Below, piece after piece: positions 80 to 39,964 of a stretch of DNA of 41,937 bases. Below the pieces are notes generated by a model that was not told the DNA's origin, did not search any database, and saw only the letters and a program-made list of their open reading frames with translations. Within the stretch, counting starts at the first letter, position 1. Every line of letters begins with the position of its first letter. The translations under genes and the position numbers were made by a program. Source of the DNA: a virus; the UHGV virus genome UHGV-0025826. One strand, given 5' to 3'.

Positions 80-144
80 CTTATTAGAAATTTGCACTTA
101 AATCAAAAAGTTACGGACAATTCAACCACCAATCAATAAATTAA

Positions 145-192
145 AGGGCACATTAAAGTACACAATATTTGTGCCCTTCTCTGTTTCTTTCC
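145..192. terminator. Stem-loop (agggcaca...tgtgccct) with T-rich tract; likely terminator for the host ORF and/or the invertase gene
   Basis: 8-bp inverted repeat at 145-152 and 170-177 followed by tctctgtttcttt; A-rich on the other side. Confidence 0.4.
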
Positions 193-197
193 CGTTA

Positions 198-746: not shown

Positions 747-751
747 GAGTG

Positions 752-778
752 CTTCTCCTGTTGTAAAAACAGGAGAAG
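752..778 (-). promoter_or_regulatory. Perfect 9-bp inverted repeat covering the invertase Shine-Dalgarno
   Basis: cttctcctg (752-760) and caggagaag (770-778) with a 9-nt loop; on the minus strand AGGAG lies 8 nt upstream of the ATG at 746. Confidence 0.35.
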
Positions 779-805
779 AGGCGAAATATCACCTGATTCA
801 GAAAA

Positions 806-831
806 ATATTTGAAAGGTTGGTTTGGGAGAA
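806..831. other. hix/gix-like 26-bp crossover site, left boundary of invertible segment
   Basis: Reverse complement TTCTCCCAAACC-AA-CCTTTCAAATAT; shares a 21-bp identical arm plus the AA core with the site at 2261-2286; resembles remembered hixL TTCTTGAAAACC-AA-GGTTTTTGATAA. Confidence 0.6.
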
Positions 832-1512: not shown

Positions 1513-1778
1513 TGAGTAATTTTGCTCTGATTGAACATGGCGTGGTGAAAAATATTATTATCTGGGATGGAGAGGGTGATTTATTCTCTAATTGCGAAAT
1601 TATAAATATTGATCATATAGATGCAGGCGTCGGTTGGTTCTATTCTGACGGAGAGTTTATAGCACCACCGGAACCGGAAATGACTGAATATGATGTTGGT
1701 AATATCGACGCGGTGATGGAAGCAGATACCAGCACCGCGCCGGGGGTTATCTGGCCAGTTCCACCTGAGATGGTTTAA
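1512..1778 (+). CDS. Putative tail fibre assembly/chaperone protein of the silent orientation
   Basis: 88 aa; start overlaps the upstream stop (TGATG); 3' end overlaps the minus-strand partner convergently; call is by position. Confidence 0.35.
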   Translation: MSNFALIEHGVVKNIIIWDGEGDLFSNCEIINIDHIDAGVGWFYSDGEFIAPPEPEMTEYDVGNIDAVMEADTSTAPGVIWPVPPEMV

Positions 1779-2668: not shown

Positions 2669-3383
2669 GGATTTTCCTCGAAAAAAAACCGCCCTGGTAG
2701 GCGGTATTAAACTTGCTGGCGAATCCTCTGGCCGAAGGGTTTCGCGAGAAACCGAATGTCAGACCAGGAGTCACCTGATAAAAATAATCGTATCGAACGC
2801 CCGCAGGTTTCGGCAGCAGGCCAAGCTTCACAATCAGGCGTAACTCTTCAACTGATACCCGCGGCGAAACGTTCAAAGCAAGCGTCATGTCTTTTCTGTC
2901 GGTCACGTAAGCTTCGCCGTTGAAAGCCGTCTGTATAACATCCTGCAGGCTGACCCGATCGTCTGACGCTATCGTTGCACCTGCGGCGTTTCGCGCAATT
3001 TTGACCCGAAGGAACCTGCGATACTCATTGTCAGCCAGTTGATAGTCACCATATGCCGGCGAAAACTTGCTGTAGAAAGGTGCGCCGACATACGCCGCAT
3101 TAGATTTACTGTCGAAGCCTGCGGTATTCAGATGTCCGTCAAACCCGAAAAATACACGGGCAATAACAGCAGGCACACTACGGTGAAGGCCGACTATCCG
3201 GCCAATGACATCAAGCCGGTATCCGGTAACCCGGTCGAGATCAAAGTTATCTGGGTTACGAATAAAATCGGCGATGATTTGCCAGTGCCTGAGCATGGCT
3301 TGTATCTCTGATCTTGCTTTTTTCTTTTCCCAATATTGTTTGATGAGCATTAGCGTGTAGCGGTTAATGATGTCGTCATTCAC
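2661..3383 (-). CDS. Baseplate protein (P2 gpI / Mu gp48-like)
   Basis: 240 aa; sits between the baseplate J-like gene and the tail fibre; overlapping stop/start with neighbours. Confidence 0.5.
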   Translation of the reverse strand: MNDDIINRYTLMLIKQYWEKKKARSEIQAMLRHWQIIADFIRNPDNFDLDRVTGYRLDVIGRIVGLHRSVPAVIARVFFGFDGHLNTAGFDSKSNAAYVGAPFYSKFSPAYGDYQLADNEYRRFLRVKIARNAAGATIASDDRVSLQDVIQTAFNGEAYVTDRKDMTLALNVSPRVSVEELRLIVKLGLLPKPAGVRYDYFYQVTPGLTFGFSRNPSARGFASKFNTAYQGGFFSRKIHV

Positions 3384-5654: not shown

Positions 5655-6188
5655 ATGGGATTCAAATTCAGACAGCGCATCAAAATTGCACCAGGCATTC
5701 ATATAAACATAGGTAAAACAGGCATTACTAGCGCATCAATTGGTAAGGCTGGTGCTACCCTGAACGTTGGTAAAAAAGGGGTAAAGGCAACCGCAGGCAT
5801 TCCCGGTACCGGTTTGTCTTACACGAGTGGAAACTTGCTCGCGGGTCAAAAGAACTCCACCGGTAAACACGCTGAGAACGTAGAGGAACAAGCACCTGAG
5901 CGGCTTGGTTTCTTTTCGGACTCAACGTTGTTAGAGGATGGTCAGGAAGATATTCAACCACCTCGCCCATTGGTCATGGTATTAACCCATAAGCAATTTA
6001 GAAAACTATCAACCGAGGAGAAAACGGCATTTAAAAATGCAGGTGGTAAGGTGAAGTTTTCAATAGGCGAGAAAATTTTTATTCTCACAGTCATTATTTT
6101 TGCTCTTGGCTGGCTTTCAGATCGTCACCCACCAGAAAAAACCAATTCCAGCGTAACGCAAGAAGTAAAATCTTCAGTTAACAACTGA
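5655..6188 (+). CDS. DUF4236-like protein with a C-terminal transmembrane segment; opposite-strand moron in the baseplate operon
   Basis: 177 aa; N-terminus MGFKFRQRIKIAPGIHINIGKTGITSASIGKAGATLNVGKKGVKATAGIPGTGLSYT matches the remembered DUF4236 signature; hydrophobic IFILTVIIFALGWL near the C-terminus; AAGGAGAG RBS; looks AT-richer than its neighbours by eye. Confidence 0.6.
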   Translation: MGFKFRQRIKIAPGIHINIGKTGITSASIGKAGATLNVGKKGVKATAGIPGTGLSYTSGNLLAGQKNSTGKHAENVEEQAPERLGFFSDSTLLEDGQEDIQPPRPLVMVLTHKQFRKLSTEEKTAFKNAGGKVKFSIGEKIFILTVIIFALGWLSDRHPPEKTNSSVTQEVKSSVNN

Positions 6189-21607: not shown

Positions 21608-22168
21608 ATGAAATACTCACAGCAAGAAAAACTACAGATCATGATGCTCAGTGATATTCACCGAGCATTAGAAATTGAAAACTCATTTGATCCTGACCTC
21701 ATTGACGAAGCAGTGAGCACGGATAACTACTGGGCTTTATCCTGGGAATACCCAGGCCTTCAAGATGAAGAAGAGGAGACCCCCTGGGAAGTCCAGCTTT
21801 TCGTTGATACCTATGATATGTATGACATTCTCCAATACACATACGAACGATTCAGTGCGGAAGACAAAGCAGAGGTTGCCAAATCTATTCGTAATTTCGA
21901 TGAGAAATTATCACTCACATTCCCCGGATTTGACGGTAACAACGAATCAAAGTTTCTTTTGATTGGTAGTTTATTGAAACGAATGGGACGGTTTAGCGGC
22001 AAAGACGATCTCACCCGGAACTCTCACATGCCCTCTGTTGCAATTTACCAACGTATGCTTGAAGTTTTCCTTCCTGCCAGAGCTAAGAATTGGGTTCACA
22101 ATGTGGGCATTACTAAACATGATTTTATCGATACACTCAACGCGAGAGTGCATCCAGAAAATCGTTAA
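21608..22168 (+). CDS. YfbU-family (UPF0304) protein; opposite-strand moron between lysis and packaging genes
   Basis: 186 aa; recalled E. coli YfbU shares DxYxMY..L, FLGFD-like and a C-terminal YQRML.V segment (here VDTYDMYDIL, TFPGFDG, YQRMLEVF). Confidence 0.5.
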   Translation: MKYSQQEKLQIMMLSDIHRALEIENSFDPDLIDEAVSTDNYWALSWEYPGLQDEEEETPWEVQLFVDTYDMYDILQYTYERFSAEDKAEVAKSIRNFDEKLSLTFPGFDGNNESKFLLIGSLLKRMGRFSGKDDLTRNSHMPSVAIYQRMLEVFLPARAKNWVHNVGITKHDFIDTLNARVHPENR

Positions 22169-22173
22169 ACGTT

Positions 22174-22195
22174 AATGCCCGCAAATGCGGGCATT
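22174..22195. terminator. Bidirectional terminator hairpin between convergent YfbU-like and Rz genes
   Basis: Palindrome aatgcccgcaaatgcgggcatt with AT-rich flanks on both sides. Confidence 0.5.
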
Positions 22196-22721
22196 ATTCA
22201 TCATGGCGCCTTATTACTTTGTCGTAGGTGCGCTCACAGGTATTTCCGGCGACATAACGCTCATCAGCCTCTTTTGCGAATTTTCCCGCCAGATCGTCAG
22301 CTTCGCTGAGCAACTGGGCGAGCAATATTCCGGCCTCGGCTTTTGCCTGGCTTGTTGCTGCAATTGCGGAAATTCTGCCTGTTTCACTTGTTGCGAGCTG
22401 CCGTTGTATTTCGGCGAGCTGCTGTTGCAACCCACTGCGAGCACGCTTAGCAGCGTTAGCATCAGCCTGTACTTTTGCCAGTTCTTCATCGGCTTTCTCT
22501 CGTTCTTCATCTACGGCCCGCTGGCGGCGCTGCTCTTCTGCTCTTTCGGTTACTTCACGCTGCAATGTAGTGGTCGCATCAGTAAGGTCACGTTGTGCCC
22601 ACTGCAATTTCCAGGATGAGTCCGCCTCCTGATACCCGCGTGAATAACACCAGTACGCGACCGCGCATAACAAAAAAGCCACCAGCAGTATTTCTGCCAG
22701 CGGCTTCCAGTAAGCCCTCAC
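22194..22721 (-). CDS. i-spanin (Rz-like)
   Basis: Start set to GTG at 22721 overlapping the endolysin stop (GTGA); N-terminal TM (LAEILLVAFLLCAVAYW) then long coiled coil. Confidence 0.6.
   Translation of the reverse strand: MRAYWKPLAEILLVAFLLCAVAYWCYSRGYQEADSSWKLQWAQRDLTDATTTLQREVTERAEEQRRQRAVDEEREKADEELAKVQADANAAKRARSGLQQQLAEIQRQLATSETGRISAIAATSQAKAEAGILLAQLLSEADDLAGKFAKEADERYVAGNTCERTYDKVIRRHDE
22214..22489 (-). CDS. o-spanin (Rz1-like lipoprotein) embedded in the +1 frame of Rz
   Basis: MKNWQKYRLMLTLLSVLAVGC: basic n-region, hydrophobic core and lipobox-like AVGC; fully nested in the Rz gene; exact start uncertain. Confidence 0.45.
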   Translation of the reverse strand: MKNWQKYRLMLTLLSVLAVGCNSSSPKYNGSSQQVKQAEFPQLQQQARQKPRPEYCSPSCSAKLTIWRENSQKRLMSVMSPEIPVSAPTTK

Positions 22722-23257
22722 TGGTCTATCCCCCAGCACGTTAACGCGCTTTCCTGGTCTCGTCGCTCTACCTGACCATAGCACCCATTTTTCTGGCCTT
22801 TGGTCAGACGACAGTCGCGGCCACCATCTTTAATCCACCAGCGAATAGCTTCACATGCGCCTTTACGGTCGCCAGCATTAATTCGCTTATAGAACGTAGA
22901 CGGGAAACATTTCCCGGGGCCGATGTTATAGGGGCAGAAAGATGCGATCCCGGCTTTCTGTGGTTCGGTCAGTGGTACTTTGATATTTCGGTCAACCCAC
23001 GCCAGCGCCTTGTCGCGTTCAATGGCATTCACCTGGGCACATTTCTCAGCTGACAACTTCATACCCTGAACTACCGGCTTGCCGTCAACCGTGGTAGCTC
23101 CCCGGCAAATCGTCCAGATACCGCTGCCATCTTTGTACGCTGTAAGGCTGTTTCCCTCTTTCTCATTCAGAAACTGATCGAGAATGACGGATGCTGGCGC
23201 ACCAGCAAGTACCAACCCCAGAACAGCAGCACTTAATTTTGCTCTGGATCCCATCAC
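22718..23257 (-). CDS. SAR endolysin (GH24 lysozyme, phage 21 R-like)
   Basis: 179 aa; Gly/Ala-rich N-terminal signal-anchor LSAAVLGLVLAGAPASVIL; catalytic E-x8-D-x5-T (EGNSLTAYKDGSGIWT). Confidence 0.85.
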   Translation of the reverse strand: MMGSRAKLSAAVLGLVLAGAPASVILDQFLNEKEGNSLTAYKDGSGIWTICRGATTVDGKPVVQGMKLSAEKCAQVNAIERDKALAWVDRNIKVPLTEPQKAGIASFCPYNIGPGKCFPSTFYKRINAGDRKGACEAIRWWIKDGGRDCRLTKGQKNGCYGQVERRDQESALTCWGIDQ

Positions 23258-23556
23258 TCACCTTCCTTTTGTAATGCCTCAACGACCACGCTTGCAGCCG
23301 CAGGACGTTCGTGAAGGGGTTTATCACCAACGCCTTTCAGGTAGTCATTAACCATTTTTGTTCGCTTCTCGTCCTCTCTACGCCTGCGGTGGGCATCCAC
23401 GCGACCATTGACATAGGAGGCAAACGAGATAAGCAGACCAGCGGCGCCAAAGAACATGAACACCATATCCTGAGTGGTAAAACCAATGGCTGACGCCAGA
23501 GCTGCTACCCACGCGAAGAACTGCGTGAAAATGTTCCCTGAATCATTCATTTTCAT
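23254..23556 (-). CDS. Holin (class II, pinholin-type) with dual-start MKM motif
   Basis: 100 aa; two hydrophobic segments and charged C-terminus; begins MKM as in lambda S; stop overlaps endolysin start. Confidence 0.7.
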   Translation of the reverse strand: MKMNDSGNIFTQFFAWVAALASAIGFTTQDMVFMFFGAAGLLISFASYVNGRVDAHRRRREDEKRTKMVNDYLKGVGDKPLHERPAAASVVVEALQKEGE

Positions 23557-23593
23557 GGTCTCTCACCTCGCTGTGTGCGGGTGTTATTGAGGT

Positions 23594-23618
23594 AATAAAA
23601 AAGGCCGCTTGAGCGACC
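23594..23618 (-). terminator. Rho-independent terminator between methyltransferase and holin genes
   Basis: Minus-strand RNA GGUCGCUCAAGCGGCC followed by UUUUUUAUU. Confidence 0.45.
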
Positions 23619-23624
23619 TCACGT

Positions 23625-24677
23625 TTATTCCCCTGTTAACGCCCTTATTTCCTCCACCGTCTGGCTAAACCTGTCCTCCTCGAGTTCAACGCCGATAGCC
23701 TGGCGGCCAAGTTCCAGCGCGATTTTCACGGTCGAACCGGACCCCATAAAGAAATCAGCCACCACATCACCAGGCTTACTGCTGGCGTTGATGATCTGCC
23801 GCAACATGTCAGCGGGTTTTTCGCATGGGTGTTTACCTGGGTAAAACTGAACGGGTTTATGTGTCCAGACGTCGGTATAAGGAACGGATACGGAAACAGA
23901 GAAATGCCGCCGAAGCGATTTGTACTCTTCGAGCAGCTCTGAATACTTGCGATTTAACGAATGCCACATAGCCACCAGCTGGTGGTGTGGTGTTGCCAGT
24001 TCGCCGTTCTGGTGCTTTTCGATGGCTACCTGCGTGAAAAGGGACTGAAGATTCCGGTAGTCTAATTCATTCGGTAATTGCCACTGGCTACCGCTGAACC
24101 AGTGAGACACCATGTTCTTCTTTCCAGTCGCATCGGCTATTTGTTTTGAGGTTATGCCAAGCGCTTCACGTGCATCCCGGAAATAAGAAATTAGGGGAGT
24201 CATTACATGCTGCTTCAGCTCGCTTCCCTTCTCCGCGTAACCGTCGCTCTTTGGTTTATACGGCCCCTGGTAATGCTCAGCGAAGAGGATGCGCTCTGTT
24301 GCAGGGAAGTAAGAGCGCAGACTCTCTTTATTACAGCCATTCCAGCGGCCCGACGGTTTAGCCCAGATGATGTGGTTCAGGACGTTGAACCGCTCACGCA
24401 TCATGATCTCAATGTCTGCCGCCAGGCGGTGACCGGAGAAAAGATAAAGACTGCCAGCAGGTTTAAGCACTCGCCAGAATTGTGCGAGGCACATATCAAG
24501 CCAGCGAAGATAATCCTCATCCCCTTTCCACTGATTGTCCCAGCCGTTGGGTTTCACTTTGAAGTACGGCGGATCCGTGACTATCAGGTCAATGGAGTTA
24601 TCAGGGAGAGTGGCGATGTATTGCAGGCTATCAGCGTTGACTAACTCAACACTGTTTATATTTACAGTATTTTTCAT
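23625..24677 (-). CDS. DNA methyltransferase, beta-class (N6-adenine or N4-cytosine), no adjacent endonuclease recognised
   Basis: 350 aa; DPPY motif near the N-terminus (LIVTDPPYF) and FxGxG near the C-terminus (DFFMGSGST). Confidence 0.85.
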   Translation of the reverse strand: MKNTVNINSVELVNADSLQYIATLPDNSIDLIVTDPPYFKVKPNGWDNQWKGDEDYLRWLDMCLAQFWRVLKPAGSLYLFSGHRLAADIEIMMRERFNVLNHIIWAKPSGRWNGCNKESLRSYFPATERILFAEHYQGPYKPKSDGYAEKGSELKQHVMTPLISYFRDAREALGITSKQIADATGKKNMVSHWFSGSQWQLPNELDYRNLQSLFTQVAIEKHQNGELATPHHQLVAMWHSLNRKYSELLEEYKSLRRHFSVSVSVPYTDVWTHKPVQFYPGKHPCEKPADMLRQIINASSKPGDVVADFFMGSGSTVKIALELGRQAIGVELEEDRFSQTVEEIRALTGE

Positions 24678-24819
24678 AGATCAATAAGCGTAACTCTGAT
24701 AGGCTCTCTTTGCTTTTGCGCTAAAGCAATGGGCCTTGGTTAGCTTGTGACCTGAAAGCATGAGCTGATGGCTGGTGGGTGCTCCAACATCCACCAGCCG
24801 CCCATTTTCACAGCAAAAT

Positions 24820-24869
24820 ACCTCCGAAATGGAGGTGCGAAGGCATAAAAAAACCCCGCTTAAGCGAGG
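24820..24869 (-). terminator. Two tandem rho-independent terminators downstream of the Q-proximal two-gene cassette
   Basis: Minus-strand CCUCGCUUAAGCGGGG then U7 (24847-24869), followed by ACCUCCAUUUCGGAGGU then AUUUUG (24820-24836). Confidence 0.5.
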
Positions 24870-24886
24870 TTATTTCGAATAGATAA

Positions 24887-25291
24887 TCAAGCAGCAGGTT
24901 CGGATGGATAAACCTGCTCATACATCTGCTGAAGGGTGTCAATAGCTTTGTTAGCCATTATCAATATAGCTTCCGCATCAGCCTTACTTAAAGTTCTATC
25001 AAGCTCGTAATCTGCCCATTTACGTCGGGTATGCAAATGTCTCAGCATTGTTCCCATAGAAATGAGTTTCATTTTTTCAAACGGCTCATTTCCTTTTAAC
25101 CATGCATCATTTGTAAGATAGTCGCGAACAGCTTGGTGTGACGACTTGTTTGGGCATTTCTCAAGCTTATCAAGCGTTTCATGATAAACTCCATAATACG
25201 CTCGACCAATGGCGTTTCTGTAACCGATTTCATCGTTGTGAGAAATGCATTTACCAGCAAAAACAATAAAATCTTTCCCCGATACGCTCAT
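24887..25291 (-). CDS. Hypothetical protein, cassette A gene 2 (134 aa); possible HEPN-like R-x6-H motif
   Basis: Start overlaps the upstream stop (ATGA at 25289-25293); contains RAYYGVYH; looks AT-rich by eye; no family recognised. Confidence 0.5.
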   Translation of the reverse strand: MSVSGKDFIVFAGKCISHNDEIGYRNAIGRAYYGVYHETLDKLEKCPNKSSHQAVRDYLTNDAWLKGNEPFEKMKLISMGTMLRHLHTRRKWADYELDRTLSKADAEAILIMANKAIDTLQQMYEQVYPSEPAA

Positions 25292-26046
25292 CAGTAAATC
25301 CCTCTTTTTTCATCGCTTTGGAACCAGGATGTAAAAGGGCTGTTCCGATAACTATCATCTGAGAGCAAAACCAACAGTTCCATGTTCATTTCAGCTAAAA
25401 CCTGCGGATCAGCAGTTTGGGCTCTAACGATGAATGCATTGTCATCATCTCCACCAAGATAATAGCTAACACTTGAACAGTTAATACCGCGCTTGTTCGC
25501 AATCTCTTCAGCTTGATCGCAAAGGGCTTCTAGTTCTCGAGAAGAAAGACGGGTAGCGTTTTTGAAATCAACAATCTGTTCAGCCATATAATTTCCCTGA
25601 TTGATTATATCCTCTCGCTCTTGGCCATCATAAAGAGCAGCCATTTTGAGGGAGAACTTTTTAACCAACTTGTCGTTGCCGATACAAAATGCAGCGTTTC
25701 TTGCTACAAGCCTCAGTTCATGTGAAGGGAAAAGCTCAACTATTCTAAACAACTCAACGCGATGCTCATAGTTATGAGCCGAACGAGAAAGATACGCCAA
25801 GTAGTTTTGTGCGATCGTTGGACTCCCAGAGCTCATCGCGTCTTTGAATAAACGTACTGCATCAGAGTGACGCCCGAGAGTTCCATTAAGCCATGCATAC
25901 GCATGTGCGCGCTCACTTATTGGAAGTTTAGCAATGTCGTGCTCAATTTCCGCAATAGTGTCTGTATCCGGGACTTCTCCCTTCTGGAAGTAATCGAGGA
26001 TTGTTGCAAGCAGTTCTTGTTCTTTTGACTCAGGCTGTCCTGACAT
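25291..26046 (-). CDS. Hypothetical protein, cassette A gene 1 (251 aa); predicted helical, TPR-like repeats
   Basis: Segments such as AHAYAWLNGTLGRHSDAVRLFKDA and IAQNYLAYLSRSAHNYEH look like TPR-type helical hairpins; no catalytic motif recognised. Confidence 0.5.
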   Translation of the reverse strand: MSGQPESKEQELLATILDYFQKGEVPDTDTIAEIEHDIAKLPISERAHAYAWLNGTLGRHSDAVRLFKDAMSSGSPTIAQNYLAYLSRSAHNYEHRVELFRIVELFPSHELRLVARNAAFCIGNDKLVKKFSLKMAALYDGQEREDIINQGNYMAEQIVDFKNATRLSSRELEALCDQAEEIANKRGINCSSVSYYLGGDDDNAFIVRAQTADPQVLAEMNMELLVLLSDDSYRNSPFTSWFQSDEKRGIY

Positions 26047-26390
26047 AATTTTCCCGAAGAAAACTAAATTCTGTATGTTTTCAATAGCTTCACTGGATAG
26101 GTTTTTATATTGCTGTCATCAGTATTGAAGCTTTTACGGGATTGTACAGGACCATCAGCGTTCTACTTGTGCATAAGAATTTAATAAACCTACAGACTTA
26201 TCCACAGAAAAAAGAGTTATCAACAAAAAAAGTTATTCACAACTTAACTAATAGCAAAATATTGTTGATAAGCTGTGCGTAATTATCATATCCATCAAAC
26301 TTACGCACATTAGAGCCTTGTGTTGCCTATCCATCGTTTTTTCCTATCAAAACGAAACGACATGCTTTTCTGCGATTAAAAAAGTATTCC

Positions 26391-26423
26391 GCAAAATTAA
26401 AAAACCCGCTCACTGGCGGGTTT
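26391..26423 (-). terminator. Rho-independent terminator about 45 nt downstream of the Q-position gene
   Basis: Minus-strand AAACCCGCCAGUGAGCGGGUUU followed by UUUUUUAAUUUU. Confidence 0.55.
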
Positions 26424-26468
26424 ATATACTGTTGGCACAATATCAAATTTACACGAAATATATGCTAA

Positions 26469-27158
26469 TTAGTTCATTTTTGCAATACCTTGCTGATAGT
26501 TTGCTGCCTTTTGTTGTGAACGTGATCGCGAAACATGAAGTAGCGCCTTGGAGTCGAGTCCCTTATACAGGCTGATAATTACATTGTAATGTTCCACGTA
26601 ATTTTGAGACCAGTTTGTTTTGTTAACTCCCACCAGCGCAGCCAGATCACCATATTGATAGACATCACGCCCAGCCAATTCAGCCTTCACATCCTGTGCC
26701 GCCAGCCAGATAAGCTGTCGCAACCGTTCGACGGTCTTCTTCGCCACCTTCCTCCCGGCCAGATGCTCGCAAAATTTCGACCACGCCCACTGAGTAATCA
26801 GCACCTGATTATCCCAACTCACATTCTCGCTATAGTTCCATAGCAACCAGGCCTTCTGGTGTTCTTCGAGCGTCATCAGTGCGCGGCGCCACGATGCCGT
26901 TGAATACTCAACCGGTTGCACCAAGGGAATATGCGAACCCTTGGTATGCGACTGTTTGCCGGGAATCGGTGGGTTATCAAGCGTAATCATTTTCCCGGTC
27001 ACTTCATCCAATATTCGAGGCTTCTTACGTTTAAACGTTCCCGTATCAAACTGCGCGTTCTCAAGCCACGCCATCAACTGCCCTTTCGTCGCACCACTTA
27101 AATCGGCGGTAGCCACCATCAGCTGCTGGCGCACGTATTCGAGGAATTGAGTGTTCAT
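26469..27158 (-). CDS. Putative late-gene antiterminator (Q position; not lambda Q family)
   Basis: 229 aa; last gene of the nin-like operon, immediately upstream of the late leader; no similarity to recalled lambda Q. Confidence 0.4.
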   Translation of the reverse strand: MNTQFLEYVRQQLMVATADLSGATKGQLMAWLENAQFDTGTFKRKKPRILDEVTGKMITLDNPPIPGKQSHTKGSHIPLVQPVEYSTASWRRALMTLEEHQKAWLLWNYSENVSWDNQVLITQWAWSKFCEHLAGRKVAKKTVERLRQLIWLAAQDVKAELAGRDVYQYGDLAALVGVNKTNWSQNYVEHYNVIISLYKGLDSKALLHVSRSRSQQKAANYQQGIAKMN

Positions 27159-27292
27159 ACAGCACCGCCTATGGTTTTGATGTAATTTTTCAGTATTCGG
27201 TAGTCCGTCAGCACAGAGCCGGGAAAGTGGTATAAGCGCAATCGTTGCCAGCGAACGCGGAGGTGATCGGCAAAGTAGGTTTCGAATATCAT
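27155..27292 (-). CDS. Small ORF (45 aa) translationally coupled between NinG and the Q-position gene
   Basis: ATG overlaps the NinG stop (ATGA) and its stop overlaps the downstream ATG; below the ORF-track size cut-off. Confidence 0.25.
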   Translation of the reverse strand: MIFETYFADHLRVRWQRLRLYHFPGSVLTDYRILKNYIKTIGGAV

Positions 27293-27888
27293 GCGGCCTC
27301 CTGCTTTTTCAGTTCTTTGAGTTTTGCGCGGTACTCATCGCGGATCCGGATGTAATCGTCGCGTTTCCATTTTGGTAATTCATGTGGCCCCATTAGTGCA
27401 TCAAAGCGAACCTGGCCGATTTTGGCGATCAGCGCGGGACGATAGGATATAAGGTTGCCTGACAGGTGGTTATTACAGGGGGCGCACTGGCGGTGACAAT
27501 TATCTTCATCAAAGCGCAGTTCTGGATTGGCACCAGTCGTGCGGAAGTGTCCTGCGTGATATTGTCCGTCGTGGTGGCGACCGCAGCTGATGCATGGCAA
27601 ATGGCGATCCCGGTACCGGATAAACTCATTGAATGCCTGCTGTGCCTGTCGGATAAAATAACTAAGGGGCTTAACCGCCTGCCGACGCTCAGCCTGACGC
27701 TTACGCTCAACCTTCTCTACCCGCTTCTTTTCCCGCTGGGCTTCGGCCTTCGCGGTATCATTCGCTACTTTTCCGTAACGGCAGGCACAGTCAAACGAAC
27801 ATACGAACTGACCATCGCGAGTTGGATGGAACCATTTTTTACATACTGAACACTTGCGGCGAGGTAACTTTTTCAGAATGGCAGGCAT
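27289..27888 (-). CDS. ninG: NinG/Rap recombination protein
   Basis: 199 aa; collinear with recalled lambda NinG (CxxC...WFHP, LPCISCG, GH(F/Y)RTT, FDE(R/D)N, KQC..CN.H.SGNL). Confidence 0.85.
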   Translation of the reverse strand: MPAILKKLPRRKCSVCKKWFHPTRDGQFVCSFDCACRYGKVANDTAKAEAQREKKRVEKVERKRQAERRQAVKPLSYFIRQAQQAFNEFIRYRDRHLPCISCGRHHDGQYHAGHFRTTGANPELRFDEDNCHRQCAPCNNHLSGNLISYRPALIAKIGQVRFDALMGPHELPKWKRDDYIRIRDEYRAKLKELKKQEAA

Positions 27889-28292
27889 TGTTGTCCACCT
27901 CCCTGAATGGCATTTAACTCTCTGCGATGCGCGTTTAGATAGCTATTCCAGTGGGCTTGCCGGATGATGGCGGCTTGCTCTTTCTGAAGGGCTGGCTCAC
28001 GAATGGCTTTGCCTTTTCGGTTGTGATCCTCCCGGATAACCTCCCCTTTAACGTGAAGATCCTCGCATAAAGGGCAATAATCACGGGTCTCCATACCACC
28101 CGAACGGCCTGAGAAAAAGATATTGCCGTGCCATGTTCCGCACTCAGCACACATCGGTGCGTCGCACATGAAAATTCCCCGCGCATTGCTGAGGTGGTGG
28201 TTTTCATCCTCATCAGCATCCCAGCCAATGATTCCATCGCATAGCAGGGTTGCAGGGTTGCCGCAGAACAGGCATTTCGCTGATTTAGCCAT
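27873..28292 (-). CDS. Cys-rich nin-region protein, unknown function
   Basis: Start set to ATG at 28292 (MAKSAKCLFCG...) just after the upstream stop; several CxxC pairs. Confidence 0.4.
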   Translation of the reverse strand: MAKSAKCLFCGNPATLLCDGIIGWDADEDENHHLSNARGIFMCDAPMCAECGTWHGNIFFSGRSGGMETRDYCPLCEDLHVKGEVIREDHNRKGKAIREPALQKEQAAIIRQAHWNSYLNAHRRELNAIQGGGQQCLPF

Positions 28293-29734: not shown

Positions 29735-29752
29735 AATGGCCCCCATTGCATT

Positions 29753-29772
29753 TACTGTTTTTTTATACAGTA
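29753..29772. promoter_or_regulatory. LexA (SOS) box overlapping the DinI-like promoter
   Basis: TACTGTTTTTTTATACAGTA is a perfect CTGT-N8-ACAG palindrome 19 nt upstream of the ATG; candidate minus-strand -10 TATACT (29769-29774) and -35 TTGATC overlap it. Confidence 0.6.
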
Positions 29773-29832
29773 TACCTATGCGCGGAAATGATCAACGCTT
29801 TAAGAGCACAAATTGTTAATTTTCTGTCAGTA

Positions 29833-29862
29833 GTAAAAAAAGAAAACCCGCCGTAGCGGGTT
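29833..29862 (-). terminator. Rho-independent terminator upstream of the DinI-like promoter
   Basis: Minus-strand AACCCGCUACGGCGGGUU followed by UUCUUUUUUU. Confidence 0.45.
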
Positions 29863-29879
29863 GAATTAGCGATGTTTTA

Positions 29880-30020
29880 TTACGCCGCTATTTGTTTCTG
29901 CTGACAAAGCTCCTGTAGGTTAGCCCTAACCAGCGCCTCAGCGAGCTGATGATTGGACAGCATTAACGCAATGGGTAATAGAAACCACAGAATGCACGAA
30001 ATGGCGGTGGTATTCGCCAT
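29880..30020 (-). pseudogene. 46-codon ORF whose last 17 codons duplicate the C5-methyltransferase-like 3' end at 30468-30532
   Basis: C-terminus ..AEALVRANLQELCQQKQIAA versus ..AEALVRANLPELCQQKEIAA in the second copy. Confidence 0.25.
29894..29943. repeat. Imperfect direct repeat, copy 1 (about 50 bp, roughly 6 mismatches)
   Basis: tttctgctgacaaagctcctgtaggttagccctaaccagcgcctcagcga versus copy 2 at 30483-30532. Confidence 0.6.
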
Positions 30021-30131
30021 CTGTGACAGGTTGAATATTGCTCGAATTGTATTGTTTGCACTTTAACGTTTCTGTTGTAGTGCCGGATGCATGCCACCGT
30101 ATGTTCAGGACGATGGCATGCATATTATGGA

Positions 30132-30368
30132 TTACGATTTATCCATTCCCAGGGGATTAGGGTGAATTCCACTTACATGCCAGAACGCATGCTCTCTATT
30201 CAACTGATTTCCCTTTGGTATCAGGAAGCCATACGTCCCAGATTTAAAAGTGGCATGAGCGCAGATTAGACTTTCTCCTTCAAAGCTATACTCAGTCCCT
30301 TCAGGGATTAGAGAGTCAGTCTTGATCAGGTGAACAGTTCCGTTGATAGGGATCATGTAATGGTGCAT
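30132..30368 (-). CDS. Hypothetical 78-aa protein between the two repeat copies
   Basis: GAGGAG 5 nt upstream of the ATG; no family recognised. Confidence 0.45.
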   Translation of the reverse strand: MHHYMIPINGTVHLIKTDSLIPEGTEYSFEGESLICAHATFKSGTYGFLIPKGNQLNREHAFWHVSGIHPNPLGMDKS

Positions 30369-30467
30369 TTTAGGCTCCTCGTGTTGTGAAGAGCCTAATT
30401 ATATCAGGTTTGAATCTACGTCATTGAAGTAGCAGGATTTGTTACACCATGTTCTGAAACTCGGACA

Positions 30468-30708
30468 TTAAGCTGCGATCTCTTTCTGCTGACAAAGCTC
30501 CGGTAAATTAGCCCTCACCAGTGCCTCGGCGAATGGCGGCGGAACTGCGTTGCCACAACGCGCAACCTGCTTGTCCTTCGCGTACTTCTGCCCCCGATAG
30601 TCCTGATCGATGATGTACCACTCCGGGAAGCCCTGCCAGTTTGGCGTTGTTCAACCCTGGGTTGTTGCGCAGGGCTGCCAGCACCTGCTCACGGATTGTT
30701 ATGTTCAT
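30468..30708 (-). pseudogene. Frameshifted 3' remnant of a C5-cytosine DNA methyltransferase (motif IX/X-like)
   Basis: One frame (30468-30650) encodes ..WQGFPEWYIIDQDYRGQKYAKDKQVARCGNAVPPPFAEAL.., resembling GFPD..Y and GNAV of C5-MTases; an ATG 1 nt after the P stop opens a different frame (MNITIREQ..) with no possible N-terminal catalytic domain. Confidence 0.4.
30483..30532. repeat. Imperfect direct repeat, copy 2
   Basis: tttctgctgacaaagctccggtaaattagccctcaccagtgcctcggcga. Confidence 0.6.
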
Positions 30709-34542: not shown

Positions 34543-34616
34543 TCAGATTTGGTCAATACGCCTGAGTTATAAGGCTCTCAGCTACTAACTCTGTCGCCTT
34601 CCCCGAACCTTCTCAT

Positions 34617-34642
34617 CCCGACCACGCGTCGGGATTTTTTTT
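34617..34642 (+). terminator. Rho-independent terminator closing the repressor/cassette B transcript
   Basis: cccgac-cacgc-gtcggg stem-loop followed by T8. Confidence 0.65.
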
Positions 34643-34716
34643 GCCTGCGATTCTGCAGACGTGTCACAAAACCCAGCCACATAAACCTCAGATTTACAAT
34701 TAATACCAACCCTAAG

Positions 34717-34745
34717 TTGACATATATATAAACCAGTGATTTAAT
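34717..34745 (+). promoter_or_regulatory. Candidate early-left (PL-like) promoter
   Basis: TTGACA (34717-34722), 17-nt spacer, TTTAAT (34740-34745), just downstream of the terminator. Confidence 0.4.
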
Positions 34746-34997
34746 CTAACTCACCAAGACGCACCACGAACCACCCAAGCATGGAGCCCACGAAGTAGCC
34801 GTCCGGGGCATACGAAAACCGGAATGAGGTGGTGATATTAACGCGCAGTAGGTTTGAAACGTTCCGCCAGCCTGGCGACAAGGGCAAACACAGAAGTGAG
34901 CTTCGCGGTGGTGAATTGCAGAGTTAAAACGCTCAACTGTGAAGATCAGCGTCACGGCACCACCAGCGAAGTTCACTCAGCAATAGTGGAGAACATC

Positions 34998-35516: not shown

Positions 35517-38500
35517 ATGGAATTCTTTAATGTGGTTAAAGCCACTCAGAAATCCGGAAAGCAAGATGCAGTGGTCTGGTTCACTGCTAAAACCGAGGCT
35601 CGCGCCAATCTGATGCTGGATGTTGCGCTGGAAGATGCAGGTATCGAAACAGGTCGGGGTAAGGACTACGCCAAACCGATTCGCACTGATTTCCCAGTTG
35701 TCGACGGTCTGCCGAAAGAAGGTGAAGTTGATTTTACCTGGTGTGATCGCTACGAGCTTCAGGACGATGGGCGCACCTGGCTGCCAAAAGCCGCTGGTGT
35801 GTCTACTGGTTCCGTTGACGCCCCCTACACACCTACTCCGACCGTAATCGTTGAAGATGCGACTGCGTCCGAAATTGTCCCGGTTGAAAACCGTACTCCA
35901 GCGGTCCGCTTTGCCGTCCATCTGATGAACGATAAATACCAAACCCACGTCACTAAAGAGCAGCAGTTGGCTGCCAGCGAAATGTCACTGGATGAAGGCA
36001 ATACATATCTCCATAGCCTGCTTGTGGCAAGGAACGATGTGCCCGCGACCGCCAAACTCAGCCTGAATGCTGAGTGGAAAATGATTCGGGCGGTTAAGGA
36101 CATTTTCACACCAGACGAAGAGCACGAACCAAGATTGATCGCTGCATTCATGTCTGACTGGGTGAACACCGATGCCGGTGACCGCAATCAACTGGTAGAA
36201 GACTGGCGCAGTGGTAAGTTGCAGTTGCTCAAAACTGAAACCAGCAACGCTGCTGACGTTACAACTGGTCAAGATCTCACTGTTGAGGACGGTATCCAGA
36301 CCGACGAGAACGGCCGGGCAGAAGGTGGCGTCGTTGATGGTGAAGTCGATACCGAAGAGCAATCCCAGCAGACACAGCAACCGAACCTGATCGTTGTTGC
36401 CACCCTGCCATTCCGCCAGCGCGTACTGGCTCAGTTCATCGGTGATGGTGAATATCTCTATCACATCGACGCAGGGCAGAAAAATGAGATTGTCCGCCTT
36501 GAGATGGACACCGATGACGCGTACGTCCAGAACCTGCTGCTGGCAGCTGAGAATGTGGAAGCATTCAAAAAAGCCATTGAGCACGATATTCATAAAGTCG
36601 TGAATGCCGTTAAGAAAGTCTTCCCTGTCGATGGTAAAAAACCGGAGCTGGCAACAGTTATCCAGTTCCTGACTGTGTGGTTCAACACTGATTACATCGA
36701 CCGTGGCCTGCTGGTCAAGGAATGGCAGAAAGGTAACCGCGTTGCGCAGATTCAACGTACTGACGTCAAAACCAATGCTGGCGGTGGAAATAAGACCGAT
36801 CGTAATACCGACTATGTCCACACACTGGACACTTTGGATGTTGAAATTGCGCTGGCCACCTTGCCAATGGATTTCAATATCTACGACATACCTGGTGGGG
36901 TCTACCGTCGCGCTAAAGAGATTGTCAGCAAGAAAGAAAGTCCGTTCAGCGAATGGTCTGAGGCGCTGCGCAAAACCGCTGGCATCCTGGACTATTCACG
37001 CGCCGCCATCTTTGCACTCATCCGCGGCACATCATCAGAATTGGTTAACTTTCCTGGGCGGTTGCGGGCATATATCAATGCCAATCTAACCGAAAATGAC
37101 CACTCAAACCTCTCAGAAGAAACGCTGGCTGATGCTGGTCATGCGCCGGACGTCAGCTGGGAAAATGAGGTTAATGAGCAGGTCGCTGCAGAGCAGAAAA
37201 CAGCTGCTAAACAGCCACAAATCGCCAACATGGGCAACGGCGTATTCTCCATTGATGGCCTGATGGGCGATCAACAAACACAAACAGATAACCGTTCACC
37301 ACTTAATGAGGAAACCACCAGCAATGTGCAGATGGAAGAAACTGTCAGTGATGAAGAACAGGCTGGTGATGAAGTGCAGTCAGGCGAAAGCAGTCTGGAA
37401 ACTGGTGAAGAGTCACATACCGGCCAGCAAGCCGATGTGAGCCAGAATGCGGATTCTGTTAGCCAAAACAGCGATTCTGTAAACCAAACCGAACCGGTTG
37501 CGGCCCAAACCGAGCCAGAAGCTCAATCTGACGAACCGGGTGTTGTGTACCCTGCTTACTTCGAACCTGGCCGCTATGAAGGTCTGCCGAACGAGGTTTA
37601 CCACGCTGCCAACGGCATCAGTTCCACCCAGGTAAAAGATGCGCGCGTTTCGCTGATGTACTTCAATGCGCGCCACGTTGAGAAAACCATCGTCAAAGAG
37701 CGCTCCTCAGTGCTGGACATGGGAAACCTGGTACATGCGCTGGCGTTGCAGCCAGAACAGCTCGATGAAGAATTTAGCGTTGAACCCGTAATTCCGGAAG
37801 GTGCATTTACCACCACGGCAACGATCCGCGCGTTTATTGATGAGTACAACGCCAGCCTGCCAGCGCAACTGAGCGCAGACGATATCAAAGCTTTGCTGGA
37901 TGAATACAACGCCACCCTGCCAGCGCTGGTGCCGCTGGGCGCTAGCCTGGATGAAACGGCGCAGAACTATATGGCGCTGCCAGCTGAATTCCAACGTATC
38001 GATGCAGATCAGAAGAAGACAGCAACAGCAATGAAGGCGTGCATCAAAGAGTACAACGCCACCCTGCCAGCGCAGATTAAAACCAGCGGCAGCCGCGACG
38101 CACTACTCGAACAACTTGCGATTATCAATCCTGACCTGGTCGCGCAGGAAGCTCAGAAGCTGCAACCGCTGAAAGTCTCTGGCACGAAGGCCGATCTGAT
38201 TCAGGCCGTGAAGGCAGTCAAACCAGATGCAGTGTTCGCCGACGAGCTGCTCGATGCGTGGCGCAACAACCCGGAAGGGAAAGTGCTGGTTACCCACCAG
38301 CAACTTGCCACCGCGCAGGCAATTCAGTCAGCACTGCTCTCGCACCCGACCGCAGGCATGCTGCTAACCCACCCGAGCCGCGCCGTTGAGGTGAGCTACT
38401 TTGGCTTTGACGAGGAGACGGGACTGGAAGTTCGTGTGCGCCCTGACCTTGAGATCGACCTAGACGGCGTGCGTATCGGTGCTGACCTGAAAACCATCAG

Positions 38501-38840
38501 CATGTGGAATGTTAAGCAGGAAAGCCTGCGCGCCAGGCTACACCGGGAAATTATTGAACGTGATTATCACCTGAGCGCGGCTATGTACTGCGAAACCGCA
38601 GCGCTGGATCAGTTCTTCTGGATTTTCGTCAACAAAGACGAGAACTACCACTGGATCGCCATCATCGAGGCATCCGCTGAACTACTGGAGCTGGGTATGC
38701 TCGAGTACCGCAAAGCGATGCGCAATATCGCAACCGGATTCGACACAGGTGAATGGCCAGCGCCAATCACTGCTGACTACACCGACGAACTGAACGACTT
38801 CGACCTGCGCCGCCTTGAAGCGCTGCGTACTCAGGCATAA
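35517..38840 (+). CDS. RecE-like exonuclease (exonuclease VIII-type, long N-terminal extension)
   Basis: 1107 aa; acidic low-complexity middle; directly upstream of a RecT/Redbeta-like annealase; GAGGA RBS; nuclease-domain assignment is positional. Confidence 0.55.
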   Translation: MEFFNVVKATQKSGKQDAVVWFTAKTEARANLMLDVALEDAGIETGRGKDYAKPIRTDFPVVDGLPKEGEVDFTWCDRYELQDDGRTWLPKAAGVSTGSVDAPYTPTPTVIVEDATASEIVPVENRTPAVRFAVHLMNDKYQTHVTKEQQLAASEMSLDEGNTYLHSLLVARNDVPATAKLSLNAEWKMIRAVKDIFTPDEEHEPRLIAAFMSDWVNTDAGDRNQLVEDWRSGKLQLLKTETSNAADVTTGQDLTVEDGIQTDENGRAEGGVVDGEVDTEEQSQQTQQPNLIVVATLPFRQRVLAQFIGDGEYLYHIDAGQKNEIVRLEMDTDDAYVQNLLLAAENVEAFKKAIEHDIHKVVNAVKKVFPVDGKKPELATVIQFLTVWFNTDYIDRGLLVKEWQKGNRVAQIQRTDVKTNAGGGNKTDRNTDYVHTLDTLDVEIALATLPMDFNIYDIPGGVYRRAKEIVSKKESPFSEWSEALRKTAGILDYSRAAIFALIRGTSSELVNFPGRLRAYINANLTENDHSNLSEETLADAGHAPDVSWENEVNEQVAAEQKTAAKQPQIANMGNGVFSIDGLMGDQQTQTDNRSPLNEETTSNVQMEETVSDEEQAGDEVQSGESSLETGEESHTGQQADVSQNADSVSQNSDSVNQTEPVAAQTEPEAQSDEPGVVYPAYFEPGRYEGLPNEVYHAANGISSTQVKDARVSLMYFNARHVEKTIVKERSSVLDMGNLVHALALQPEQLDEEFSVEPVIPEGAFTTTATIRAFIDEYNASLPAQLSADDIKALLDEYNATLPALVPLGASLDETAQNYMALPAEFQRIDADQKKTATAMKACIKEYNATLPAQIKTSGSRDALLEQLAIINPDLVAQEAQKLQPLKVSGTKADLIQAVKAVKPDAVFADELLDAWRNNPEGKVLVTHQQLATAQAIQSALLSHPTAGMLLTHPSRAVEVSYFGFDEETGLEVRVRPDLEIDLDGVRIGADLKTISMWNVKQESLRARLHREIIERDYHLSAAMYCETAALDQFFWIFVNKDENYHWIAIIEASAELLELGMLEYRKAMRNIATGFDTGEWPAPITADYTDELNDFDLRRLEALRTQA

Positions 38841-38845
38841 GGGGA

Positions 38846-39964
38846 ATGATGATGGAAAACACGAATATCGTAACCGCTGAACAGCAGACTCCAAACACGA
38901 TCTCAGCCAGCAATGCCATTTTCAACGTGCAGGCTTTAACCCAGCTTCAGTCTGTCGCCGGGTTGATGGCACAGGCAGCCGTAACGGTGCCTGAGCACCT
39001 CCGCGGCAATCCGGCAGACTGCATGGCCATCATCATGCAGGCGATGCAGTGGGGTATGAACCCTTACGCCGTGGCGCAAAAGACGCACCTGGTTAATGGT
39101 GTCCTGGGATACGAAGCGCAACTGGTTAATGCGGTGATCTCCAGCTCAAACGCCATCGTTGGCCGCTTTCACTATGAGTACGAGGGCGACTGGTCGAAAT
39201 GTGCCAGCAGCCGCGAGATAACCGTTAAAAAGCCTGCGAAAGGTGGCGGGACGTACGACAAGAAAGAAATGGTACGCGGTTGGGAAAGTGCTGATGAACA
39301 AGGACTGTCGGTACGGGTAGGTGCCGTTATTCGCGGTGAAAGTGATATCACCTGGGGAGAGCCTGTTTTCCTCTCCAGCGTAATCACACGTAATTCTCCA
39401 CTTTGGGTATCAAACCCGAAACAGCAGATCGCTTATCTGGCACTCAAATACTGGGCGCGCCTGTATTGCCCTGCAGTTGTTCTTGGTGTGTACACCCCTG
39501 ATGAGATTGAACAGCGCACAGAAAAAGAGATCAACCCAACGCCGCAACGCGTTAGCCTGGCTGATATCTCAGGTGACACCGTCACAACCACGCAAAGCGC
39601 ACAGGAATCGTCGGTAAATGTCGACTCTCTTGCCGATGATTTCCGCGAACGCATCGAATCTGCTCAGAACGTGGATAGCGCCAAATCGCTGCGTGCCGAC
39701 ATTGAAACGGCGAAAGCTACGCTGGGATCCGCACTATTCACCGAGCTGAAAAACAAAGCCGTAAAGCGTTATTACCTAGTGGATGCACGCAACAAGGTTG
39801 AGGAGGCTATTAAATCCCTGCCCCAGCCCGACGAGCCGCATGCATCCGAACGGTTCGCTGAAGCCGAGCGCATGCTTGCATCTTCAAAGCGTCACTTAGG
39901 CGATGAACTGCACGATCAATTCAGCATCACCCTGGCGGATATGAAACCGGAATACGTGGCCTGA
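38846..39964 (+). CDS. Single-strand annealing protein (RecT/Redbeta family)
   Basis: 372 aa; AMQWGMNPYAV resembles lambda Bet ANQYGLNPWTK and RecT; immediately downstream of the exonuclease. Confidence 0.6.
   Translation: MMMENTNIVTAEQQTPNTISASNAIFNVQALTQLQSVAGLMAQAAVTVPEHLRGNPADCMAIIMQAMQWGMNPYAVAQKTHLVNGVLGYEAQLVNAVISSSNAIVGRFHYEYEGDWSKCASSREITVKKPAKGGGTYDKKEMVRGWESADEQGLSVRVGAVIRGESDITWGEPVFLSSVITRNSPLWVSNPKQQIAYLALKYWARLYCPAVVLGVYTPDEIEQRTEKEINPTPQRVSLADISGDTVTTTQSAQESSVNVDSLADDFRERIESAQNVDSAKSLRADIETAKATLGSALFTELKNKAVKRYYLVDARNKVEEAIKSLPQPDEPHASERFAEAERMLASSKRHLGDELHDQFSITLADMKPEYVA

Follow-up and report, generated by a model that had tools for sequence, protein, structure and literature searches.

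An M.EcoGII-family DNA methyltransferase with a conserved, structured leader in the late operon of a lambdoid Escherichia coli prophage

Organization of the methylase locus

The window analysed here, by which we mean the entire 41,937-nucleotide (nt) stretch of the virus genome UHGV-0025826, is a complete lambdoid Escherichia coli prophage that is 100% identical to part of the chromosome of E. coli VE-F5. Its genes lie mostly on the minus strand, and among the late genes on that strand is one for a DNA methyltransferase (henceforth the methylase), which is preceded by a conserved non-coding leader and which, together with this leader, is the subject of the present work. Read along the minus strand, the late region has the order antiterminator gene Q, late promoter pR', terminator tR', a two-gene cassette, terminator T1, terminator-like hairpin H0, leader, methylase, terminator T2, holin, lysozyme and Rz, with the terminase and structural genes lying downstream of Rz (Table 1). 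A 56-nt block around tR' is kept in other prophages with the same Q type. The region 23000..27500 contains 12 terminator-like sites, as against 4.3 +/- 2.5 in shuffled sequences. Apart from this methylase, the annotation of the whole prophage lists neither a methylase nor a nuclease that would belong to a restriction system.

The methylase belongs to the M.EcoGII family

The methylase is matched over residues 29-340 by the Pfam N6_N4_Mtase model (PF01555; E 1.3e-42), and it is also matched by the PADLOC profile PDLC03265 (7e-145). The order of its motifs, with DPPY followed by a central recognition domain and then by FxGxG, is that of the beta-class enzymes. Pairwise comparison gave 78% identity and 87% positives to M.EcoGII over 348/350 residues with only two gapped positions, 85% identity to the reconstructed ancestor Anc289 and 73% to Anc284/SUPREM, the comparison sequences being taken from the machine-converted supplement of the SUPREM paper (PMC11551740), which contains visible errors. 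No gaps against M.EcoGII fall at 121-240, a segment of high identity that covers the four-helix recognition domain (residues ~160-237). The methylase is also 76.9% identical to that of phage 1720a-02, which has been named a close relative of M.EcoGII (PMC5778455). Pfam, NCBIfam and PADLOC searches detected no endonuclease domain in either neighbour of the methylase, which thus lacks the adjacent, co-inherited endonuclease of a type II restriction-modification system. With its motif order, its full-length homology and its phage-borne location without a cognate endonuclease, the protein is a member of the M.EcoGII family.

Experiments on M.EcoGII itself showed methylation of adenine irrespective of context, on DNA, on single-stranded DNA and on RNA (PMC5778455). 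The lysogen does not express the enzyme, which is poorly tolerated under constitutive expression (PMC5778455; PMC12707154). All the reconstructed ancestors were active on both DNA and RNA, and no sequence motif was found for M.EcoGII, Anc291 or SUPREM (PMC11551740). As the methylase lies inside a clade bracketed by these tested enzymes, it is predicted to have the same non-specific adenine activity. In a sequence search of the PDB, all matches were to generic beta-class methylases (E of 1.7e-24 or higher), and there was no structure of M.EcoGII. Judged by its sequence, the methylase is a new allele of the known and very widespread M.EcoGII/M.EcoGI kind.

Predicted terminators flank the methylase and recur in its relatives

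Terminator-like hairpins stand on either side of the methylase: T1 closes the cassette, H0 opens the methylase module, and T2 begins 4 nt past the methylase stop codon. The fold energies of T1, H0, T2 and tR' are each well below those of shuffled controls. Homology to methylase loci that have no cassette stops at 24856, between T1 and H0; therefore, the cassette with T1 is one mobile unit, and H0, leader, methylase and T2 make up another. A simple consensus scan, which weak or activator-dependent promoters could escape, found no sigma70-like promoter between T1 and the methylase ATG. Of the two marks of a moron, a promoter and a terminator of its own, the unit shows one: the terminator T2 is present and conserved, and the promoter is not seen in the consensus scan.

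The flanking hairpins were examined in a set of 151 distinct loci drawn from 80 viral contigs, 80 species genomes and others. In relatives, a hairpin lies ~140-146 nt before the ATG with stems that differ in sequence and are yet self-complementary, and a loose scan detected such an H0-type hairpin in 115/151 loci. On the other side, a strict scan placed the start of a terminator at most 15 nt from the methylase stop in 86 of the 151 loci, while in a first viral set 66/79 loci have a terminator within 150 nt of the stop. The stems of these post-methylase terminators likewise vary by lineage and stay self-complementary, and the annotators of phage Ayreon independently marked the same terminator.

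These results bear on the original prediction for this locus, which had described a beta-class methyltransferase with DPPY...FxGxG motifs lying between the cassette and the holin gene of the late region, with terminators on both sides and no recognisable endonuclease beside it. The 350-residue open reading frame (ORF), with its PF01555 match, its DPPY and its FMGSG, bears out the enzyme class, the gene order bears out its place, and no endonuclease domain was detected in either neighbour by the profile searches. The flanking terminators are likewise present, with the refinement that the upstream side has two hairpins, of which T1 belongs to the cassette.

A conserved non-coding leader is tied to the methylase gene

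The most unusual part of the locus is the leader, which the original prediction did not include. In alignments of the sequences upstream of the methylase ATG, similarity starts abruptly at H0 and persists with little change up to the ATG, regardless of what precedes H0. Relatives whose proteins share 80-90% amino acid identity with the methylase (n=78) have leaders 88% identical to that of the window, with 76% identity in the coding sequence and 50% at third codon positions; at 70-80% amino acid identity the corresponding values are 85%, 72% and 45%. The leader is recognisable in Hafnia, Providencia, Morganella, Serratia, Yersinia, Ewingella and Lonsdalea. Photorhabdus loci (L262, L265, L266, L273 and L276, at ~2917..3000) keep only its 5' domain and have a leader ~50 nt shorter, in which the GUGAAAUGG segment and the P1b hairpin (see below) are kept with other stem sequences and the 3' domain is missing. 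Some Xenorhabdus loci (L264-L289) appear by eye to keep the hairpin and resemble the Photorhabdus versions.

The leader is fixed to one gene. With an nhmmer profile it was found directly 5' of the methylase in 122/123 cases, the sole exception being a leader before an internally deleted methylase. Among these cases are 35/36 loci fetched by a DNA pattern that is independent of the gene; a first, loose version of the leader pattern gave ~70% chance matches, and nhmmer served to filter these. The same leader is present at loci where the methylase matches the M.EcoGII sequence at 94-100% identity, and a covariance model built from the leader alignment has no other meaningful match in the window. 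A conserved small ORF within the leader was considered and rejected, as the frame that opens with ATG has 7, 21 or 38 codons in different versions and some versions have no ATG. Thus, in the manner of cis-regulatory RNAs, the leader is non-coding, conserved beyond neutral expectation and fixed to one gene family.

Searches of 22000..28000 and of 24640..24900 against the 4227 families of Rfam 15, run with E-value thresholds, gave no match to the leader, the best score near it being that of P26 on the opposite strand (24.6 bits vs a gathering score of 36). RefSeq has no annotation over it, and no description of it was found by sequence and keywords in the searchable literature, within limited libraries. 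The leader is therefore undescribed as far as Rfam 15, the RefSeq annotation and the searchable literature show, which is not proof of novelty. The start codon that follows it has no evident Shine-Dalgarno sequence. A Dam site, GATC at 24681..24684, stands 4-7 nt before the methylase ATG and is kept in ~90% of leaders (as TGATCTATG or TGATCCATG).

Covariation supports a structured and possibly bistable RNA

The structure of the leader was derived from an alignment of 67 sequences using RNAalifold and explicit pair counts. Its best-supported element is the hairpin P1b (GGCUGGUGGA pairing with CCCACCAGCC), in which nine of the ten pairs show compensatory changes. A second hairpin, alt-P2 (AGCUCAUG pairing with CACAAGCU), has a covarying closing pair that is CG in 32, AU in 19, UA in 8 and UG in 5 sequences. 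A further pairing, P0/P1a, joins the invariant 5' segment UGUGA...AUGGG to both arms of alt-P2; it is 99% paired and shows wobble-compatible changes only. As P0/P1a and alt-P2 are mutually exclusive, the modelled structures would permit a switch. In the 3' domain, the helix P3 encloses the hairpin P4, and the few compensatory changes there include 149:184 (GC to AU) and 160:170 (UA to GC).

Over all the stems, 96% of the alignment cells are paired, as against 33-46% when the partners are slid. Covariation as high as that observed arose in 0/500 shuffles, a shuffle-based statistic that is inflated by the relatedness of the sequences. In an all-against-all scan of the columns, the clade signal dominates, and the sole pairs to rise above it are 116:141 and those of P1b. 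At one position of the leader G-U is the commonest pair, where the other strand would give C-A, and this points to a sense-strand transcript. Thus, the leader shows the compensatory substitutions that characterize cis-regulatory RNAs.

In the window, P1b also carries the recombination sequence Chi (GCTGGTGG) on both strands, the two arms of the hairpin building a Chi palindrome (24771..24798). This palindrome was considered as the cause of the conservation of P1b and rejected: Chi is missing from the Hafnia, Serratia and Xenorhabdus versions of the leader, which retain the hairpin.

Distribution and gene order among relatives

A sensitive DNA search of complete E. coli genomes detected the leader and gene at a coverage of at least 80% in 2628/5426, almost always in the slot between Q and holin; a single genome may have as many as 8 copies. 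The allele of the window, at a threshold of at least 95% identity, is present in 17 records. Relatives of the methylase are found in 96 phage records, including those of cdtI, SfV, phiP27, mEp460 and many Stx2 phages. As read from the annotations, the order Q, variable small genes, methylase and holin holds in mEp460, in Ayreon and in phages of Hafnia, Providencia, Morganella and Serratia.

In 97 of the 151 loci, an ORF of 64-67 amino acids (phrog_331) directly precedes H0; its product is winged-helix-like, with weak MarR/TrmB similarity, and is a possible regulator of the methylase unit. No copy of this small protein occurs anywhere in the window, where the TPR+HEPN cassette takes its place. 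If the protein acts on the leader, it would have to be dispensable in the window prophage or be supplied in trans.

The adjacent TPR+HEPN cassette

The cassette that precedes the methylase unit is low in GC (0.43) and has its own terminator, T1; its gene B overlaps gene A, and R90, D94 and Y95 of protein B are invariant. It is present in only 12/5426 complete E. coli genomes, all of which have the same prophage region including the methylase. Homologues of protein B are encoded by three unrelated phages, namely the Klebsiella phages ST405-OXA48phi1.3 and Chronis and a Vibrio P2-like phage, with no methylase nearby. A gene for a protein of ~250 amino acids immediately precedes each of these homologues, its likeness to A being recognised by gene order only, and a tblastn search of protein A against phage records gave no match. 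At other methylase loci the slot is filled by unrelated cargo, such as an SDH-family protease or small hypothetical genes. Neither cassette protein has a significant match in PADLOC, protein B being marginal to PDC-M05B (E 0.012), or any match to restriction systems in PADLOC, Pfam and NCBIfam, and their folds are not those of DNA nucleases. We regard the cassette as a candidate prophage defence or toxin-antitoxin moron.

Table 1. Features of the late region in window coordinates; the last three rows give examples of the phrog_331 ORF in other loci, in the numbering of those loci (aa, amino acids; UTR, untranslated region; AdoMet, S-adenosylmethionine)
Feature	Position	Strand	Evidence and remarks
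Late antiterminator Q, which defines the late operon	27158..26469	-	PF06323 Phage_antiter_Q, E 1.2e-97; RefSeq annotation
pR'-like late promoter, TTGCAA-17-TATATT, overlapping the Q stop	26485..26457	-	Consensus scan; position predicted from lambdoid architecture
tR'-like intrinsic terminator, ~30 nt downstream of the promoter	26423..26402	-	-12.0 kcal/mol, z -4.6
Two-gene cassette, independent moron	26046..24887	-	A: 251 aa, TPR-like solenoid and small alpha/beta domain; B: 134 aa, HEPN fold
T1, intrinsic terminator closing the cassette	24871..24852	-	8-bp stem, U7 tail, -13.0 kcal/mol, z -4.3
H0, terminator-like hairpin opening the methylase module	24836..24820	-	6-bp stem, weaker U tract, -9.4 kcal/mol, z -3.1
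Leader, non-coding 5' UTR of the methylase, ~135 nt	24813..24678	-	Covariance model, 152.6 bits, E 6e-36
P0/P1a pairing	24812-24808 and 24805-24801 to 24750-24746 and 24764-24760	-	99% paired; wobble-compatible changes only
P1b hairpin	24799..24770	-	9/10 pairs with compensatory changes, 67 sequences
alt-P2 hairpin	24766-24759 with 24749-24742	-	Covarying closing pair
3' domain, helix P3 (GGC-C / G-GCC) around hairpin P4 (GCUUU / AAAGC)	24735..24702	-	94-97% of cells paired
M.EcoGII-family beta-class N6-adenine DNA methyltransferase, 350 aa, WP_001767234.1	24677..23625	-	ATG start; Pfam, PADLOC, sequence comparison
Catalytic motif IV DPPY, residues 35-38	24575..24564	-	Direct reading; invariant in alignment A2
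AdoMet-binding motif I FMGSG, residues 310-314	23750..23736	-	Direct reading; invariant in alignment A2
T2, intrinsic terminator before holin	23620..23601	-	8-bp stem, U6 tail, -11.9 kcal/mol, z -2.8
Holin; next gene after the methylase and first of the lysis genes	23556..23254	-	phrog_1350, E 2.5e-24
phrog_331 ORF, locus L003	3649..3852	-	Upstream of H0-leader-methylase
phrog_331 ORF, locus L087	2147..2347		Upstream of H0-leader-methylase
phrog_331 ORF, locus L088	2168..2362		Upstream of H0-leader-methylase

Other features of the prophage

Elsewhere in the window, a YfbU-family gene of moron-like appearance (21608..22168, plus strand) is wedged, on the strand opposite to its neighbours, between Rz and the gene for the small terminase subunit. 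A recombinase-family gene, possibly an invertase, adjoins plus-strand tail-fibre and tail-fibre-assembly genes (119..1621 and 5655..6188), which suggests a possible invertible host-range segment at these genes; recorded with the same pair of intervals is a plus-strand DUF4236 gene that sits among minus-strand baseplate genes. The early region has two stretches without a RefSeq gene (29735..30507 and 34543..34997; 455-773 nt).

Chi occurs 14 times in the window, where 1.1 occurrences are expected, and 12/14 are on the minus strand (7858, 14041, 16240, 19431, 22679, 22835, 23972, 24791, 26630, 34960, 37315 and 38294). Both plus-strand sites are halves of palindromes, one being that of P1b and the other CCACCAGCTGGTGG (23972..23985), which lies within the methylase gene at the codons for HHQLVA. 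The prophage encodes RecE/RecT (35517..39964), and Gam is not among its annotated genes. As a sequence pattern, this distribution would be compatible with Chi-based protection from RecBCD.

Proposed function and alternative explanations

The analysis established directly to which family the methylase belongs, how the genes are ordered, that terminator-like hairpins are present and that the leader is conserved and covaries; from this we infer the following mechanism. In the lysogen, as in the established biology of lambda, transcription from pR' would end at tR', and transcription leaving the moron cassette would end at T1 and H0; with these stops the harmful enzyme would therefore not be made. 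Upon induction, Q would render RNA polymerase resistant to terminators, allowing it to read through tR', the cassette, T1, H0, the leader, the methylase and T2 and to continue into the genes for lysis and for the virion structure. Synthesis of the methylase would then coincide with that of the late proteins, at the time of phage DNA replication and packaging, and dense N6-methyladenine would shield the progeny DNA from many of the restriction enzymes that it meets in the next host. The leader may act as a second, post-transcriptional control on the amount of enzyme made from the highly abundant late mRNA. A translational gate or a processing site is the favoured form of such control, because the gene has no evident Shine-Dalgarno sequence, because the enzyme is toxic, and because an RNA gate (com-mom) exists in phage Mu for the analogous Mom.

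Taken together, we consider it likely that the locus encodes an orphan phage methylase of the M.EcoGII family, expressed late in dependence on Q, fenced by terminators and serving to mark DNA against restriction, with the leader as a second control. A late anti-restriction self-methylase was one of two roles offered by the original prediction, and it gains support, at the level of sequence, from the resemblance to M.EcoGII (78%) and Anc289 (85%), from the slot between Q and holin, and from the recurrence of the terminators in relatives. Several points weigh against this account. The identities to M.EcoGII and the ancestors are approximate because the text of the supplement was machine-read with errors; 22% of the residues of the methylase differ from M.EcoGII, and some sequence preference is possible because of this divergence. 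Overcoming host restriction is a presumed, and not a demonstrated, role of the M.EcoGII family in phage infection (PMC5778455). The promoter and terminators are consensus and energy predictions, and the U tract of H0 is weak. Finally, two candidate elements of the leader, a helix GGUCA:UGAUC that would mask the start region and a pseudoknot between the P4 loop and CGCU, were rejected because their covariation was no better than that of shuffles.

The other role offered by the original prediction was that of the modification half of a system, in which the methylase would protect against a toxic or restricting activity of the adjacent cassette. The cassette does adjoin the methylase on the same strand, and does so in all 12 E. 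coli genomes that bear it, and the HEPN fold of protein B is common among toxins. However, the methylase unit is found in 2628 genomes vs 12 for the cassette, the same slot elsewhere holds other cargo, and A+B pairs occur in Klebsiella and Vibrio phages without a methylase. Moreover, the HEPN domains whose activity is known target RNA rather than DNA, protein A is built of TPR-like repeats, restriction matches are absent from PADLOC, Pfam and NCBIfam, and T1, H0 and the homology breakpoint separate the cassette from the methylase. The distribution largely refutes this pairing, to which we attach hardly any probability. That the enzyme is instead an orphan with site specificity that acts in regulation or packaging, in the manner of Dam, CcrM or the Dmt of P1, could be argued from a weak similarity to the YhdJ and CcrM models of NCBIfam, far below their cut-offs, from the recognition of CCANNNNNTGG by M.PflMI, the nearest site-specific relative of the clade (PMC11551740), from the divergence from M.EcoGII, and from the many GATC and Chi features of the phage. 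The recognition region is nevertheless gap-free and of high identity to M.EcoGII, the protein lies within the clade bracketed by the non-specific M.EcoGII and SUPREM and closest to the active Anc289, and the tight insulation by terminators suits a harmful enzyme better than a housekeeping regulator; thus, we judge site specificity of this kind unlikely.

As to the substrate, the relevant late target might be RNA, or RNA together with DNA, in the form of phage or host transcripts and possibly of the leader itself, with the tuning of translation or the blunting of RNA-targeting defences as possible ends. M.EcoGII and the ancestors methylate single-stranded RNA and RNA:DNA hybrids in vitro (PMC5778455; PMC11551740), and the methylase gene has a conserved structured RNA leader that was not seen elsewhere. 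Against this stands the activity of M.EcoGII on RNA, which is far below that on DNA (~30% vs ~90% of adenines in vitro; PMC11551740); an in vivo role on RNA has not been reported, and the sequence does not separate an RNA from a DNA role. We therefore hold an RNA target to be very improbable. The leader, for its part, might be a feature of the DNA, such as a recombination linker joining lambdoid modules or a protein-binding site, or might owe its conservation to recent horizontal spread. Lambdoid mosaics share short conserved junction sequences, E. coli-type leaders have Chi inside P1b, and the kinship of the sequences inflates the covariation statistics based on shuffling. Yet the leader is 85-88% identical where the synonymous sites of the adjoining gene are at 45-50%, which rules out recent spread, and compensatory changes keep P1b and alt-P2 paired (96% vs 33-46% slid). 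The prevalence of G-U at one position and the retention of the hairpin without Chi in Hafnia, Serratia and Xenorhabdus likewise speak for an RNA, and we regard an explanation at the level of DNA or of spread as improbable.

Within the preferred account of a Q-dependent, fenced anti-restriction methylase, we tentatively suggest, short of even confidence, that the leader constitutes a new class of cis-regulatory RNA for M.EcoGII-type methylases in ~half of the sequenced E. coli, one that is bistable and gates translation or processing. The basis of this suggestion is strong purifying selection, the exclusive association with one gene, covariation on the sense strand and absence from Rfam. The trigger would perhaps be S-adenosylmethionine (SAM) or S-adenosylhomocysteine, the methylase itself, or the winged helix-turn-helix (wHTH)-like protein whose gene usually precedes the unit.

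Comparison with known systems

The closest known counterparts are M.EcoGII and M.EcoGI from a prophage of E. coli O104:H4 C227-11 (Murray et al. 2018, PMC5778455), with which the methylase shares the beta-class motif order, the prophage-borne location, a similar length (350 vs 349 amino acids), the end-to-end identity and the leader. The allele of the window differs in being 22% substituted and nearer to Anc289, and its activity is predicted from its sequence. Furthermore, the small wHTH-like gene that usually stands before the unit is replaced in the window by the TPR+HEPN cassette.

In phage Mu, a fold of the mRNA ahead of the initiation codon controls the translation of Mom, the DNA-modifying enzyme of that phage, and by analogy a gate of this kind is the role that we propose for the leader. 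Mom is an anti-restriction enzyme, toxic if mis-expressed, silent in the lysogen and made late, and the methylase would probably share these properties; the comparison with Mom has been drawn for M.EcoGII in an EcoSal review (PMC12707154). The two enzymes are, however, unrelated in sequence and fold: the product of Mom is N6-carbamoylmethyl-adenine, and Mom does not belong to the SAM methyltransferases. Nor does the window have a gene for a Com-like zinc finger, the small companion ORF at other methylase loci being wHTH-like.

With the cargo of the Q-to-S slot, such as stx in the Stx phages and the HK97-type morons, which have a terminator of their own, the methylase shares the position after pR'/tR' and before holin, the 3' terminator and mosaic boundaries that coincide with terminators. 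Morons of the classic type are transcribed in the lysogen from a promoter of their own, whereas no promoter-like site was seen for the methylase and its family is reported to be lysogen-silent; it behaves as a fenced-off late gene. The Dam-type enzymes of T4 and P1 and the promiscuous alpha-class methylases (Drozdz et al. 2012) are similarly phage-encoded, lack a cognate nuclease and are presumed to act in self-protection or packaging. They are alpha-class or GATC-specific, whereas the methylase is beta-class and falls in a non-specific clade.

Implications

Taken alone, the methylase adds little, since the enzyme of which it is a further allele has been characterised and is extremely common in prophages. 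The idea of the cassette as its partner can be dropped. The TPR+HEPN pair is of interest in its own right as a candidate prophage defence module that is unlisted in defence databases. M.EcoGII and SUPREM are widely used as tools for labelling chromatin and RNA, and hence a natural control element of such enzymes could have practical value. For the family as a whole, the architecture of terminator, leader, methylase and terminator is conserved between Q and holin, and this fencing would explain how prophages in ~half of the E. coli genomes carry a harmful enzyme. The leader, in turn, offers a way to test what keeps the expression of a non-specific methylase in check once antitermination has set in.

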